A stretch of 31,566 nucleotides of DNA from a bacterium. Its GTDB lineage: Bacteria; SZUA-182; DTGQ01; JAFGSM01. Every line of letters begins with the position of its first letter. Position 1 is the first letter of the stretch. A program made the translations under genes and the position numbers. The stretch lies in assembly GCA_049472415.1 (NCBI GenBank), contig JBLIRS010000001.1:1-31566 (forward strand). Direction: 5' to 3'. This document shows positions 24,049 through 31,566 of this stretch, one piece after another. The notes under the pieces were generated by a model. That model made no database searches. It had not been told where the DNA came from and saw nothing but the letters and a program-made list of their open reading frames with translations.

Positions 24049-26061
24049 TTATTCATAATTATTATCAACGCCTCCGATCAGGTGTGGCAGCCCTTCTTCT
24101 AAAACCATTTTTTCGATGAAACGCTCACCGATCTCAGTCAGAAAACGGCTCGGTTTCATCATTACTAATCCACCTGAACGGCTTCGATAAACCTTGGGGA
24201 CAACCAGATACAGCTCATCCCTGGCCCTGGTAACAGCGACATGAAAAACACGTCTTTCCTCCTCTTCATCCTCCTGAGTATTTATGGCAAGATCTGTGGG
24301 AAAACGTCCATCAGCGAGCCAGGGAATAAATACTACCGGCCATTCCAGACCTTTTGCCTGATGAACGGTGCTTAGAATTACAAATTCCTGTTCATCCGGT
24401 CCCGTGAGTACGGTTTCACCCGAGAAATCAGAAGCCAGGGCCAGATCGGCCAAAAGTGCCTCCAGGGTAACATATTGAGAAGAAAAATTTACAAACCCCT
24501 TTATGTCTTCTATTCTTTGATATGATCGGTCATAATGGGAGACCAGATAATCTTCGTAGAAACCGGACATCAAATGCTCTATCATCTCGGCAGGAGAGGT
24601 CAGATCTGAAAGTCTGTTGAGAAGCGTTGTAAAATCAGAATAGAAAGGCCGTACGCGGGATGGGAATATATTAGCCGTCGCGGGATTCAATGCCGCTTTT
24701 AATGGATTGTCCCCTTGATTTATATGATTCCATAATTTTTTCGAAAGTCCTCCTCCGATCATGGGCAAGAGCTTCAACGCCCTCAGCCAGGCTATCTCAT
24801 CTTGCGGGTTGTGAATTATCCTCAAATGACAAATTATATCTTTAATATGGGCCTGTTCAAAGAACCTTAGTCCGCCTCTTACCCGGAATGGTATATTACG
24901 GCGTTGCAACTCTAATTGTATTTCTAAAGAATGCCAGTGACTTCTATATAGGATGGCAATAGAGTTAAGATTCCTTCCTTCGTCCAGGAGATGGAGAATA
25001 TATTCGGATAAAAAACGGGATTGTGTAAAATGGTCATAACAGGAGACTATCGCAGGCTTAAGACCTTGAGGACGGATAGCATGAAGATTTTTGGGCAATC
25101 TTTCTGTGTTCATGGAAATACTTGCATTGGCTAATGCAAGTATTTCCGGTGTTGAACGGTAATTCGTTTCAAGACGGTATTCACCGGCATCAGGATATCG
25201 CTCCTTAAATGAAATGATATTTTTAAAGCTTGCGCCGCGAAAACTATATATGGATTGTGCATCATCCCCAACAACGGTTAGGTTGCGATGCTTTGATGCA
25301 AGAAGGTCGACAATAGCCCCTTGTATGGCATTTGTGTCCTGATATTCATCTACCAGGATATATAAAAATTGATCGGATAATAGGTCGCGAATCTCTTTAT
25401 GTTCCATAAGAAGCCTGAGCCAAGAGGAAAGCAGATCGTCATAATCCAGAAATTGCCTTGAATGCTTTTTGGCGGCATAGAGGGTTAGCACGCTTTGAAT
25501 CCCATCCATATCCTGAATAAACATTGGATAGCTCTTATATAATATCGTTTCAAGCGGCAAAAGGGTATTATGCACAAAACCGGATATTTTTGACAAAACG
25601 GCCTTTTGAGGAAAACGCCTTTCCTTGATCAATATACCCGCTTCTGTAATACAGGCCCCAATCAGATCCCGTGCATCTTCCCTGTCAAGGATAGAAAAAT
25701 CAGGAGAAATATCAAGTGCTGTTCCATAAAGTCTTAGTATCCGGTTGGCGATATGATGAAATGTTCCGCCCCATAGGTTTTTCGTTTTATGGCCGGCCAA
25801 AATCTCCACCCTGTGGAGCATCTCACGTGCCGCTCTGTTTGTAAAGGTTACGAGCAATATGCGGCCTGGATCCACACCTTGTTGTACAAGCCATGCCAGG
25901 CGATACGTCAAGGCACGGGTCTTCCCGCTGCCTGCTCCGGCTATGACGAGCATTGGTCCGCCAGGTGCGGTAACGACCTTGAACTGCTCATCATTCAGGT
26001 CGGCCTCGAAATCAACATCGCTATTTAAATGCCCGGCCTTAAAGACAAATCTTCTCGTCAT
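24049..26061 (-). CDS. SF1 DNA helicase UvrD/PcrA/Rep family
   Basis: 670 aa; AGAGSGKT, VTFTNRAAREM, GTFH, LVDEYQDTN, VGDDAQSIYSFRGA, LETNYRST, STVHQAKGLEW, EERRVFHVAVTRA. Confidence 0.95.
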   Translation of the reverse strand: MTRRFVFKAGHLNSDVDFEADLNDEQFKVVTAPGGPMLVIAGAGSGKTRALTYRLAWLVQQGVDPGRILLVTFTNRAAREMLHRVEILAGHKTKNLWGGTFHHIANRILRLYGTALDISPDFSILDREDARDLIGACITEAGILIKERRFPQKAVLSKISGFVHNTLLPLETILYKSYPMFIQDMDGIQSVLTLYAAKKHSRQFLDYDDLLSSWLRLLMEHKEIRDLLSDQFLYILVDEYQDTNAIQGAIVDLLASKHRNLTVVGDDAQSIYSFRGASFKNIISFKERYPDAGEYRLETNYRSTPEILALANASISMNTERLPKNLHAIRPQGLKPAIVSCYDHFTQSRFLSEYILHLLDEGRNLNSIAILYRSHWHSLEIQLELQRRNIPFRVRGGLRFFEQAHIKDIICHLRIIHNPQDEIAWLRALKLLPMIGGGLSKKLWNHINQGDNPLKAALNPATANIFPSRVRPFYSDFTTLLNRLSDLTSPAEMIEHLMSGFYEDYLVSHYDRSYQRIEDIKGFVNFSSQYVTLEALLADLALASDFSGETVLTGPDEQEFVILSTVHQAKGLEWPVVFIPWLADGRFPTDLAINTQEDEEEERRVFHVAVTRARDELYLVVPKVYRSRSGGLVMMKPSRFLTEIGERFIEKMVLEEGLPHLIGGVDNNYE

Positions 26062-26383: not shown

Positions 26384-26932
26384 ATGAAAATTAAAAAAAG
26401 CAGAATATATTTATTTGTTTTATTTATTTGTATTTTTTGTTTTGCATATTTATATGTTAATTCTTCCTCAATTGCTCAATATTCGCCATATAATTATTAT
26501 AATTATAATAATAATAATTACTATTACGAATATTCAACCCAGGCTCTGTCACCGTCATATTTTTACGGCACCCCCTATTCAAATAGTTATTCATGGGTAA
26601 ATGATCAATATTACGGAAGAGAGATAAATATACCAACACTAAAGATAAATGATTGGTCAATTCAACCTAATTTTGGAAATACTGTCTATTCAGTCAGTTC
26701 AAATGGAAGCTCATTAACAATATATGGTACTTATTTTAGTGCTCACACCCATGCCGGAGTAAACTTTAATCGTACATTGTTTATGGACAGCTCATTATCT
26801 TCATCGGCAAATCACGCAATGTATAATAACATCGGCGGACAATCATCACTTACCTCTCCTGTGAGTTATTATGCACGACAGGTTTTACAGTTTAGCCCGG
26901 TTTTGCATGGTCCTCTGCTAAACAATTATTAA
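26384..26932 (+). CDS. Secreted Tyr/Asn/Ser-rich low-complexity protein (182 aa)
   Basis: ATG 26384 with GGAG SD (track start 26315 is likely too long); MKIKKSR plus hydrophobic core ending SIA|Q; YNYYNYNNNNYYY tract. Confidence 0.7.
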   Translation: MKIKKSRIYLFVLFICIFCFAYLYVNSSSIAQYSPYNYYNYNNNNYYYEYSTQALSPSYFYGTPYSNSYSWVNDQYYGREINIPTLKINDWSIQPNFGNTVYSVSSNGSSLTIYGTYFSAHTHAGVNFNRTLFMDSSLSSSANHAMYNNIGGQSSLTSPVSYYARQVLQFSPVLHGPLLNNY

Positions 26933-27453: not shown

Positions 27454-27498
27454 GGTCTGTATTTTAATTTGACAGACCGGAAAAATTTATTTTAGATT
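27454..27498 (+). promoter_or_regulatory. Putative promoter with operator-like palindrome upstream of cassette copy 1
   Basis: TTGACA (27469-27474), N18, TAGATT (27493-27498); GGTCTGT-N11-ACAGACC (27454-27478) overlaps the -35. Confidence 0.4.
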
Positions 27499-27606: not shown

Positions 27607-27999
27607 ATGGATATTTCTAGACTTCTAAAGGTGGGGATTATCGCTGCTGTCCTGGCAATCGGTGTTGTATTAATATTCGGACCGATGGCTCAGGCTCAGA
27701 TCTTTCCCACATCATATTATTATACAAATCCGTTGTATTATTCCGGATATGGTTATTTTAATTCGATCAATGGGTACCTGCTCGGTTATGCCCCCTTTAC
27801 GCCGTTTTTAACCCCCAGTGCGGCTACAGCATACAATACCCTGGGTATTCCTACGTGGCCGTATTTCGGGTCTCCGTATCAGACTACGTTTCCTTATACC
27901 ACCTTGCCGGGCACTCCGATTCCTTATGCAAGGTTTGATTATCCGACCTACTCATACGGTTCACCTGATTTCTATTTGAGCTGGGTACTTTTACAATAA
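27607..27999 (+). CDS. Small secreted Tyr/Pro/Thr-rich protein, copy 1
   Basis: 130 aa; SD GAAGGAG; signal peptide ending MAQA|Q; near-identical paralog at 30928 with mostly synonymous differences, which supports real coding. Confidence 0.9.
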   Translation: MDISRLLKVGIIAAVLAIGVVLIFGPMAQAQIFPTSYYYTNPLYYSGYGYFNSINGYLLGYAPFTPFLTPSAATAYNTLGIPTWPYFGSPYQTTFPYTTLPGTPIPYARFDYPTYSYGSPDFYLSWVLLQ

Positions 28000-28035: not shown

Positions 28036-30357
28036 ATGAAAAATACAATTAAAACCTTAATGGTTTGTTTGACTGTGACCTTGGCCTTTGTGATGGTCAG
28101 TTCATTGGCCATGGCACAGGTGGGTTATGGTTTCACACCACTTTGGCAGTTGCCATCCTTTCAGAGTCAACCGCTTTCGGTTCCGACCTGGCAGGACCCC
28201 TATAATGGTGAAGGGGATCTCCTTGTCGACAACTTTGAGTATTGGGACAGCCCATACAATCATGGGTGGATGCAGCAAGAGCCTTCCTATCCGGTTTATG
28301 GATATGGAATAGGCTATGCCACAATATTCAATACGGTCCTGGATCTTCAGGAAGGAAGCAGGGTGCTTGATGTGTATCGTCCGCCATCTGTATTCTTGCT
28401 CAGCACACCCTATGAGAGGCATCAAGTGTTCCACAGCCTTTATAGCCCTGCAAGCGCTGCTAATCCGGATGCTGAGGCATGTATAAGCATGGAGACAAAC
28501 CCGACAATCAGTTTTGATTTCAGGGCGCCTCTCGGCATCGAGTCCTGGGACATATTTAATCTGTCTGTCATCGGAGAAGATGAGAGTGGCGACAAGTCCA
28601 TTACCGTCAGTATCGTTCCTGTTCAGCCTAATGCCGGTACATACCTTGGAGCCGTTAACAGTACCAGTGGTATGTATGGTTTAGCCGCTGGCGTTACAGG
28701 TTACAATTCAGCCGGACAATTACAGGTCACAATAGCCATTGGCCGCGGAATGCTCGATGGTTCATGGCATGCTGTGTACGTTAATGTTGATGAAGCTGTA
28801 AAGGCCGCTCTGGATGGTTTTGACACCATCGATGATGCTGACAAACCGGACTGGTATATGGCCAAGGCCTGCGCTGTGGCAGTCAGCGGTCAGATGTTCC
28901 GTCTGGACAACCTTATGTTCAGGGCAACCCCACACGATTATCTTGGCGTTCCGAATCTTTTTGAAATGGGTCCGCTGTACGCTCAGATATTCGAACCATA
29001 CAGGTATCTTTTTGTTGCCGATTACTCAGGCGTTGATATGACAATCGTTGTTGACGAAAACGAGCAGGACATTACACGAATTAGCGATTTAATGCTCAAT
29101 CCTGCCAACTTCCTGCTTGTTCAGGACCCGAATGATCCTAATGATCCGGTAGTGAAATACTGGACAGATTTAGGGGCAGATCCCAACAAATTCGGTGAAG
29201 AGGCGGATCCTAACCTTGAAGACCTGTTTGGCAGGGATTTCGTTGTTGATCTCAGCCTGCCCATCTTCGCAGATCCGAATTTGAGGGTAGGTGGTTCCTT
29301 GGCGGAAACGATAATCAATTCCGGTACATTGGGCTGGAATTCCACGATAGGTGGATACGGCGCCAACGGGGTACAGGCCTTCCTGCTTCAACCCCTTCCG
29401 GTTTATCCTTATGATGGTATGCCGACTTATTTACCTGCATACTATAATGCTGTAAACGCTGTTGTAGCACTTGGCAAACCGTATTTTCAGCCGGGACTTG
29501 TTTACCTGCTCGAAGGTGCCCTGTGGAATGCAGGTCTAACCGTTTGGCCGAATATAGCTACATTTGATTATACACCACAGGTTTTTGAAGACCTTATCGT
29601 TACAATCGAGGTAACCAACGGAGCACATTCCGATGTAAGAACATTCCCAATCAGCGTGGTTAACTACCCGATGGAAAACTATCCGCCAGTACTGCAGTTG
29701 AATATAGAAGATCAGATCTTCTATACGGGACAGACGAACGCATATCTCGTCAACTTTATCGATCCTGACTGCTTCATCTTCTCGATGTCATCTGCTCCCG
29801 CGACCACACATGTGCCGGGATACCCGCTTTCTGCGAGCTTCAGGACCGATATGGACGACCTTACCTGGAAAATGACGATCAACGGCATGACTGCATATCA
29901 GTACGGTCCGTGGATCGAGACGATTATCGATCCTTGCACAGGCTTGATCAGTTGGGTGCCGAAGTTCGAAGGTGCCTATGACGCTGTTATTACCGGTAGC
30001 GATGCCCGCGGCGGCACTGCATTTGGTGAAATCACCATCTTTGCCGTAACCCAGGGCACATGGTTGAATCATCCTCCGATCATCTTGAGCAGGCCGACTC
30101 AACCGGTAGTTATAAAGGCCGGAGAAGAGTACGTACTTCAGCATCCGGATCTGGCAGTAGAAGATCCTGACGGTGATCAGATATATGCATCATGTAACAT
30201 AGGCTCCTGTGGACGTTCAGCGGATGGTGCTTTCATTTGGAGATTCCAGAGCAACTTCCCAGGCTCCTACATGGTGGAAATCGTATTTTATGATATCAGA
30301 GGCGGATATTCGATCATGGAATTCTTCCTCGACGTGAAACCGTGGTGGAGTTATTAA
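28036..30357 (+). CDS. Large secreted acidic protein with DPN repeats and C-terminal cadherin/Ig-like domains, copy 1
   Basis: 773 aa; SD GCGAGGTG; signal peptide ending LAMA|Q; DPNDPNDP...ADPN...ADPN...ADPN; NYPPVL...DPD, GLISWVP...SDARGG, NHPPII...EDPDGD are cadherin-like/putative-Ig linker and Ca-binding patterns. Confidence 0.85.
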   Translation: MKNTIKTLMVCLTVTLAFVMVSSLAMAQVGYGFTPLWQLPSFQSQPLSVPTWQDPYNGEGDLLVDNFEYWDSPYNHGWMQQEPSYPVYGYGIGYATIFNTVLDLQEGSRVLDVYRPPSVFLLSTPYERHQVFHSLYSPASAANPDAEACISMETNPTISFDFRAPLGIESWDIFNLSVIGEDESGDKSITVSIVPVQPNAGTYLGAVNSTSGMYGLAAGVTGYNSAGQLQVTIAIGRGMLDGSWHAVYVNVDEAVKAALDGFDTIDDADKPDWYMAKACAVAVSGQMFRLDNLMFRATPHDYLGVPNLFEMGPLYAQIFEPYRYLFVADYSGVDMTIVVDENEQDITRISDLMLNPANFLLVQDPNDPNDPVVKYWTDLGADPNKFGEEADPNLEDLFGRDFVVDLSLPIFADPNLRVGGSLAETIINSGTLGWNSTIGGYGANGVQAFLLQPLPVYPYDGMPTYLPAYYNAVNAVVALGKPYFQPGLVYLLEGALWNAGLTVWPNIATFDYTPQVFEDLIVTIEVTNGAHSDVRTFPISVVNYPMENYPPVLQLNIEDQIFYTGQTNAYLVNFIDPDCFIFSMSSAPATTHVPGYPLSASFRTDMDDLTWKMTINGMTAYQYGPWIETIIDPCTGLISWVPKFEGAYDAVITGSDARGGTAFGEITIFAVTQGTWLNHPPIILSRPTQPVVIKAGEEYVLQHPDLAVEDPDGDQIYASCNIGSCGRSADGAFIWRFQSNFPGSYMVEIVFYDIRGGYSIMEFFLDVKPWWSY

Positions 30358-30380: not shown

Positions 30381-30418
30381 AAAAAAGGGCAGCGGTAAAT
30401 CCGCTGCCCTTTTTTTTT
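30381..30418 (+). terminator. Intrinsic (probably bidirectional) terminator after cassette copy 1
   Basis: AAAAAAGGGCAGCGG-TAAAT-CCGCTGCCCTTTTTTTTT. Confidence 0.92.
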
Positions 30419-30543: not shown

Positions 30544-30572
30544 TTGACAATATACAATATTTTGTTTAAAAT
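30544..30572 (+). promoter_or_regulatory. Putative sigma70 promoter for cassette copy 2
   Basis: TTGACA (30544-30549), N17, TAAAAT (30567-30572), downstream of the terminator. Confidence 0.55.
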
Positions 30573-30927: not shown

Positions 30928-31320
30928 ATGGGAAATTTAAGGTTTTTGAAAGTGTGGGTGATCGCTTGTGTTTTTGCAATCGGTCTTGTTTTAGTATTCG
31001 GACCGATGGCACAGGCCCAGATTTTCCCCACATCATATTATTATACGAATCCGCTGTACTATTCCGGATATGGTTATTTTAACTCGATCAATGGGTACCT
31101 GCTCGGTTATGCGCCTTTTACCCCGTTCCTGACCCCCAGTGTTGCAGCAACATACAATACCCTGGGTATTCCCACATGGCCGTATTTCGGGTCCCCATAT
31201 CAGACTACATTCCCCTATACGACCTTGCCGGGCACTCCGATTCCATATGCACGGTTTGACTATCCTACCTACGCATATGGTTCACCTGATTTCTATCTGA
31301 GCTGGGTACTTTTACAATAA
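30928..31320 (+). CDS. Small secreted Tyr/Pro/Thr-rich protein, copy 2
   Basis: ATG 30928 with GGAG SD gives 130 aa, the same length as copy 1 (track start 30898 is likely too long). Mature part differs from copy 1 at 4 of 100 aa. Confidence 0.9.
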   Translation: MGNLRFLKVWVIACVFAIGLVLVFGPMAQAQIFPTSYYYTNPLYYSGYGYFNSINGYLLGYAPFTPFLTPSVAATYNTLGIPTWPYFGSPYQTTFPYTTLPGTPIPYARFDYPTYAYGSPDFYLSWVLLQ

Positions 31321-31358: not shown

Positions 31359-31566
31359 ATGAATAATACAATGAAAACCTTGATGGTTTGTTTGATTGTG
31401 ACCCTGACATTTGTGATGGTCAGATCAGCGGCCATTGCACAGGTGGGTTACGGTTTCCCACCGCTTTGGGATTTACCTTCCTTTCAAAGTCAACCGCTTC
31501 AGGTGCCGACATGGGAAGACCCCTATAACGGAGAAGGGGACCTTCTTATCGACAACTTTGAGTATT
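31359..31566 (+). CDS. Large secreted protein, copy 2 (paralog of 28036; truncated by window edge)
   Basis: Hand translation MNNTMKTLMVCLIVTLTFVMVRSAAIAQVGYGFPPLWDLPSFQSQPLQVPTWEDPYNGEGDLLIDNFEY; same GCGAGGTG SD as copy 1; absent from the ORF track. Confidence 0.9.
   Translation, partial: MNNTMKTLMVCLIVTLTFVMVRSAAIAQVGYGFPPLWDLPSFQSQPLQVPTWEDPYNGEGDLLIDNFEY

Follow-up and report, generated by a model that had tools for sequence, protein, structure and literature searches.

A strongly conserved, almost uncharged Tyr/Pro/Thr-rich small protein founds an orphan family in one order of uncultured bacteria and is probably part of a cell-surface structure

The sulfur globule proteins SgpA/B/C of Allochromatium are Sec-exported, non-enzymatic proteins of about 10 kDa, both Tyr-rich and Gly-rich, which occur as several paralogues and have a presumed role in the envelope. 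Curli CsgA, Fap, chaplins and hydrophobins are small, secreted, multi-copy coats, and in the archaeal SlaA/SlaB pair a large variable outer protein is combined with a smaller, more conserved base. A further set of envelope proteins, the YTV-domain cell-wall proteins of Planctomycetales, is described as cysteine-rich in the passage of PMC8567305 that cites Hieu et al. 2008 and Mahajan et al. 2020.

The window considered here, that is, the whole analysed stretch of 31,566 nucleotides from an uncultured bacterium, carries two cassettes in which a small gene is followed by the gene for a large partner. The features of this region are as follows.

24049-26061, minus strand: UvrD/PcrA helicase.
26384-26932, plus strand: secreted protein encoded upstream of cassette 1, whose Tyr/Asn-rich N-terminus is of truly low complexity and precedes a beta-rich domain.
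27469-27498, plus strand: promoter-like site of cassette 1 (TTGACA, 18 nt, TAGATT), from a consensus scan with 10/12 matches, which is no proof of function.
27607-27999, plus strand: small gene copy 1, an ORF of 130 aa comprising a 30-aa signal peptide and a 100-aa mature chain.
27607-27696, plus strand: signal peptide of copy 1 (30 aa, ending in AQA and followed by Gln+1), from the ORF and its translation.
27697-27999, plus strand: mature Tyr/Pro/Thr-rich, almost uncharged chain of 100 aa, copy 1, with its stop codon; the central feature.
28036-30357, plus strand: 773-aa secreted partner, 36 nt 3' of the small gene and with its own SD.
30392-30417, plus strand: terminator-like hairpin and T-run closing cassette 1, from a sequence scan.
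30544-30572, plus strand: promoter-like site of cassette 2 (TTGACA, 17 nt, TAAAAT), called by consensus match alone (11/12).
30928-31320, plus strand: small gene copy 2, with a mature part at 31018-31317 that is 96% identical to copy 1.
31359-31566, plus strand: first part of the gene for the second large partner, truncated where the contig ends; over 69 aa its product shares 83% identity with the first partner.

The start codon of copy 2 is probably the ATG at 30928. The small protein carries a Sec-type export signal, and by the -3/-1 rule cleavage would be expected between AQA and Gln+1, a motif that is at least 90% conserved within the family. Glutaminyl cyclase (PF05096), which bears on the question raised by the conserved Gln+1, was present in genomes G006 and G011 and was not found in genus g1. 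The mature chain of copy 1 contains 18 Tyr, 14 Pro and 13 Thr, together with 1 Arg, 2 Asp and zero Lys, Glu, Cys, Met or His; it draws on 15 residue types (3.51 bits), is 28% aromatic, and has a pI of 4.2 and a mass of 11.5 kDa. This bias is family-wide. Among 120 members Tyr, Pro and Thr account for 18.5, 13.4 and 11.3% of residues, and Lys, Glu, His, Cys and Met for 0.1, 0.3, 0.1, 0.2 and 0.3%, respectively. The original prediction had described the peptide as low-complexity-looking, which is accurate for its biased composition yet does not extend to the sequence itself: 0 12-residue windows of the mature chain fell under the threshold in an SEG-type test, and the best internal self-alignment scored 36, where shuffled sequences averaged 34.6 (sd 6.4) and 77 of 200 of them did as well or better. 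Of elements that could anchor it in a membrane or cell wall, the mature protein has neither a hydrophobic helix nor a lipobox Cys, nor any known sorting motif. Its sole Arg lies at position 79, and trypsin would yield fragments of ~79 and ~21 residues; with one Arg and no Lys, the family would probably be missed by standard shotgun proteomics.

Comparison of the two mature copies showed 32 differences in 303 nucleotides, distributed as 26 codons with synonymous differences and four amino-acid changes (A42V, T44A, A45T and S86A). The hand count in the original prediction was thereby reproduced exactly, as was its tally of Tyr, Pro and Thr. The signal peptides of the two copies differ at 10 of 30 residues. 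Using the Nei-Gojobori method (NG86), the mature pair gave dS 0.548, dN 0.018 and omega 0.032, and the signal-peptide pair dS 0.76, dN 0.21 and omega 0.28, so that the faster divergence of the signal peptide, also proposed at the outset, was borne out. A larger sample was obtained by drawing 86 unsaturated pairs from 16 genus-level homologues of the small protein, for which the median omega was 0.051 and the maximum 0.15; a GY94-type maximum-likelihood codon model gave 0.071. With dN/dS formally far below 1 in this sample and orthologues well conserved, the strong purifying selection that had been claimed from two copies stands.

For comparison with neighbouring genes, one syntenic block was aligned between the window genome and a congeneric species, over which dS was uniform (0.40-0.55). 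Omega values within this block were 0.042 for the mature small protein, 0.077 for the UvrD/PcrA helicase, 0.109 for the 773-aa partner and 0.293 for the Tyr/Asn-rich neighbour. The lower omega than that of UvrD at equal dS indicates that the small protein is as constrained as a core enzyme, and since the orthologue dS equals that of the neighbours, the small gene is under no special synonymous constraint. The constraint is also site-specific: across 122 sequences, 52 of the 100 mature positions are at least 90% conserved, and P4, Y20, L29, P36, F37, P66, P76, Y77, P83, G88 and W96 remain invariant when members sharing only 40-66% identity are compared. Purifying selection this strong and position-specific excludes a disordered filler; it implies that the chain has a defined fold or makes a defined contact on assembly, in agreement with the precise fold or polymer contact envisaged in the original prediction. 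In distant members other residues take the place of the N-terminal Tyr cluster, which speaks against Tyr chemistry as the universal point of the protein.

Between cassettes C1 and C19, dS was 0.65 for the small genes vs 1.14 for the big partners, and the lower divergence of the small genes in some paralogous cassettes indicates that occasional gene conversion probably adds to their similarity. A nucleotide tree recovered three old orthologue pairs across species, showing that several paralogue lineages are older than speciation.

The mature chain was modelled as a monomer with AlphaFold2 from 122 aligned sequences, giving a pLDDT of 50, a pTM of 0.26 and two short helices only. A low-confidence monomer model of this kind fits a protein that would fold on assembly; the low pLDDT may equally just reflect a shallow, low-diversity alignment (Neff about 2.6).

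Searches of Pfam and NCBIfam with the window protein and with 20 diverse members gave no match at E values up to 1, and profile searches of the PDB with two alignments of the small protein (A2 and A4) returned matches at chance level alone (E 0.31 and 1). A profile search of 1.84 billion representatives recovered 23 clusters at 50% identity and no more; a word-based search yielded 124 family proteins, every one labelled hypothetical. In a feature search of the ESM Atlas, scores did not exceed 0.85, the clusters retrieved were unnamed, and no Atlas model of the small protein was found. The family was present in 13 of 13 species-representative genomes of one order, in none (0/7) of the sister-order genomes of the same class and in none of 21 more distant genomes. 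The small protein thus founds an unannotated orphan family, confined to one order of uncultured bacteria. Within genus g1 there are 4-10 small-gene matches per genome, and the window's own MAG, which is 64% complete, holds at least 5 copies. One family member, P0253, is a natural fusion of 458 aa in which a domain of ~250 aa follows the conserved C-terminal W-V-L-L-Q, showing that this end is not an obligate terminus; an Atlas search with the extra domain gave unnamed clusters alone.

Based on their spacing and on the promoter-like and terminator-like sites, one of each flanking every cassette, the small gene and the 773-aa partner form one predicted operon. The order small-then-big was seen in every complete cassette of genus g1, and likewise in four cassettes of G006, which are clustered within 20 kb. 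AlphaFold2 modelled the 773-aa partner with a pLDDT of 83.8 and a pTM of 0.76. When this model was searched by Foldseek and VIA-align, residues ~56-301 matched CBM-type jelly rolls (Z 10-15) and residues ~546-770 matched two tandem cadherin-like domains; the middle domain (residues ~304-545) gave no match. No Pfam or NCBIfam family was matched by the 773-aa protein. Its family is greatly expanded, with 19-28 matches per genome and the same phyletic range as the small family, and only a minority of its genes have a small gene upstream. A small protein acting as a shared, constant component would fit this pattern, in which the majority of big paralogues have no small gene to themselves. Where the two occur together, the dN of the small protein is 2-15 times below that of its own partner.

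Some members of the 773-aa family carry extra thrombospondin type 3 or Big_9 modules. One paralogue in the window's genome, located outside the window (G000:C271:5317-7410, minus strand), contains a single in-frame TGA in the context ...PNFGF[TGA]PYTGFG..., within a low-confidence loop of the model. The same TGA-bearing paralogue was found in G004:C106, G002:C2 and G003:C48, and the G001 orthologue is without the TGA; the codon could represent selenocysteine, read-through or a shared defect. The idea that the partner's aromatic/Pro-rich N-terminal tail has a docking segment in common with the small protein was considered and rejected: hhalign aligned the signal peptides alone, and the local alignment reached a z of 1.6, with 35 of 500 shuffles as good.

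The small protein is also found in other settings. Downstream of a divergent paralogue, 150-180 aa long, there is in every case an uncharged, secreted, Pro/Leu/Ser-rich protein of 200 aa, which gave no Pfam match and whose mature part in the window's own genome is without Lys or Arg. This module lies outside the window in the same genome (G000:C227:3799-5101), recurs at loci L046-L052, and occurs in genus g1 and in G006, with some genomes carrying it twice. Genomes of family f3 (L040-L044) have a single small gene with no adjoining gene of the 773-aa family. About 600 nt upstream of this small gene, and in the same orientation, is a gene for a secreted CarboxypepD_reg/SdrD-B/SpaA beta-sandwich protein of 1230-1370 aa, and in three of the five f3 loci ClpB-like and sigma-54-activator-like genes stand on the other side of the small gene. 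A relationship between the f3 1230-aa neighbour and the 773-aa family was rejected (hhalign probability 0.2%); as the neighbour is unrelated and ~600 nt away, the linkage in f3 may be mere neighbourhood.

In the window's genome and its relatives, the contexts contained, as neighbours of the small gene, only the large secreted partner and unrelated housekeeping genes. No accompanying enzyme, transporter, nucleator, chaperone, outer-membrane channel or secretion genes were found in the four contexts of this genome and those of the relatives examined. The Tyr/Asn-rich protein upstream of cassette 1 is in the same position in congeneric G004 (80% identity, omega 0.29), and a relationship to the small protein was rejected (z 0.5). 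The best named relatives of the UvrD/PcrA helicase, ~70% identical, come from Planctomycetota/Sedimentisphaerales MAGs, which hints at either a lineage akin to Planctomycetota or gene transfer.

The host lineage encodes BamA, LpxC and 3-8 secretins per genome, which identifies it as a classical LPS-bearing diderm with routes across the outer membrane. The isolate names of related MAGs use the sample-code scheme of the Futian mangrove and mudflat catalogue (PMC13280167), and the habitat, judged from run labels and MAG names, is sulfidic, anoxic coastal sediment. By sequence-word matches, part of the cassette is putatively present in 12 metatranscriptome runs of studies on marine sediment, mangrove and rhizosphere; 58% of the sampled cassette words occurred in a single run, of only 246 Mb. 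Codon usage of the small genes (13th-44th percentile) gave no sign of high expression, in a genome where ribosomal and background usage barely differ.

Taken together, the small family is probably part of a cell-surface structure. Our best reading, which we put forward tentatively, is that the small protein could be the invariant structural or anchoring subunit of a cell-surface assembly and folds on assembly. The non-enzymatic, almost uncharged protein of 100 aa would be exported by Sec, presumably to the outside of the cell, and on its own would have no stable fold. A fold would then be gained by packing the fixed Pro and aromatic positions against other copies of itself, against the adjoining secreted protein, or both. 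Once packed, the protein would serve fast-diverging surface proteins with glycan-binding or adhesive roles as their shared base or anchor, and these partners would comprise the 773-aa CBM/cadherin-like family, the 200-aa Pro/Leu-rich protein and the 1230-aa beta-sandwich protein of f3. A bolder form of the proposal, which we regard as unlikely, treats the small protein as a charge-free Pro/aromatic 'zipper' that would polymerise into a hydrophobic scaffold and, with the Pro/Leu-rich protein, anchor the diversified CBM/cadherin-like adhesins; it would then be a previously unseen building block of the fold-on-assembly kind.

The main rival is a free-standing, homopolymeric coat or fibre. Here, the small protein would self-assemble in a hydrophobin-, chaplin- or amyloid-like manner, possibly with Tyr cross-links, and the large protein would be an operon neighbour or a minor accessory; we consider this doubtful. 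Homopolymer subunits typically show what is seen here, namely near-identity of the small proteins between paralogues with diverged partners, and the number of copies per genome in genus g1 would suit a high dosage. The nearly uncharged, aromatic chain and the unconfident monomer fold are consistent with such a role, as is the retention in f3 of one small gene with no 773-aa-family gene beside it. The chain is, however, 14% Pro, spread along its length and free of repeats, unlike known functional amyloids, and the examined contexts hold no nucleator, chaperone or secretion genes. A mechanism based on Tyr cross-links is further weakened by the loss of the N-terminal Tyr cluster in distant members and by an operon without an oxidase or peroxidase. 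The self-assembling, amyloid-like or Tyr-cross-linked subunit of the original prediction stays conjectural for these reasons, with a monomer pLDDT of 50 and without amyloid-type accessory genes.

Two further explanations are more narrowly drawn. In one, the small protein would coat an insoluble or hydrophobic substrate or inclusion (elemental sulfur, a mineral or a polysaccharide particle) and so resemble SgpA/B/C in function. Conservation at individual sites is stricter than a surface-active coat would need, and no Pfam or NCBIfam match was obtained at E up to 1, so that we hold this improbable even though a Sec-exported, Tyr-rich protein of about 11 kDa with several paralogues, a partner with a CBM-like domain, and a sulfidic coastal sediment habitat (taken from run labels and MAG names) all fit it. 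In the other, the small protein would act as an escort in the periplasm and assist secretion, either by keeping the secreted product of the downstream gene competent for export or by guiding it through the outer membrane. The strictly conserved small-first order with predicted co-transcription, and the separate downstream secreted partner of each subfamily, are what an escort would predict; most big paralogues nevertheless have no small gene, the small protein does not co-diverge with its partner, and a chain that is free of charges, rich in aromatics and without a confidently predicted fold is hardly what one would expect of a soluble chaperone, which leaves this role with little to recommend it. 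The precursor of a ribosomally made, post-translationally modified peptide, also raised in the original prediction and suggested by the small size, the unusual composition and the Gln conserved at both ends of the mature chain, is very improbable, given a Sec signal peptide with an AxA site (ending in AQA before Gln) in place of a leader, conservation across all 100 mature residues and not in a short core, the P0253 fusion with its 250-aa domain after W-V-L-L-Q, and, in the contexts and operons examined, no radical-SAM, YcaO, lanthipeptide, peptidase or ABC-exporter genes adjoining the copies.

If the subunit reading is true, the small protein would be the constant core of a lineage-specific surface system in an uncultured order, and the 19-28 diversifying glycan-binding or adhesive proteins per genome would be its variable part. 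The metatranscriptome word matches suggest that this order is transcriptionally active in mangrove and marine sediments, where trypsin-based metaproteomics would systematically miss the small protein. It also offers a clean example of an apparent low-complexity filler that can be as constrained as a core enzyme. The family is real and well conserved, an orphan of unusual, charge-free composition; it does not yet amount to a mechanistic discovery, and its function is one that we infer. Defining the family and solving a structure would be reasonable aims, since it has neither a Pfam model nor a structure so far.

The known systems named at the outset serve as analogies, no defining sequence feature of any of them having been found in the small protein. 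In composition alone it may be likened to amelogenin, a secreted vertebrate protein that is Pro-rich, hydrophobic and poor in charges, has a Tyr-rich N-terminus and assembles by itself into a matrix; amelogenin has no homology to the small family, its core is His/Gln-rich and intrinsically disordered, and it belongs to a mineralisation context. With the functional amyloids and coats the small protein would share its size, secretion, multi-copy state, scarcity of charges and presumed assembly-dependent folding, and it differs from them in having no imperfect repeats, Cys pattern, accessory genes nearby or Pfam match, and in its 14% Pro. The YTV-domain proteins, as the cited passage of PMC8567305 presents them, offer a parallel as lineage-restricted, compositionally biased envelope proteins with Tyr/Thr motifs, and the host lineage may be related to their phylum, its UvrD being about 70% identical to Planctomycetota homologues. 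The small family differs from them in Cys content (0.2%, and zero in the window protein), and no Pfam match was found at E up to 1.

The likeness to SgpA/B/C drawn in the original prediction remains useful as an analogy and adds nothing beyond that. A Sec signal, a size of about 10 kDa, a Tyr-rich chain and several paralogues recur in the small protein (11.5 kDa, 18% Tyr), which is, however, Pro/Thr-rich and not Gly-rich, has no repeats and is linked to large CBM/cadherin-like proteins; Pfam and NCBIfam returned no match at E up to 1, the inclusion of an Sgp model in those libraries being unconfirmed. The archaeal SlaA/SlaB pair differs in other respects, since the small protein here has only 100 aa, has neither a transmembrane anchor nor a coiled coil, shows no homology to either protein, and is missing from beside most of the large paralogues. 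What the two arrangements have in common is their architecture, in which a small, conserved gene is predicted to be co-transcribed with that of a large, faster-evolving surface protein rich in beta-sandwiches.
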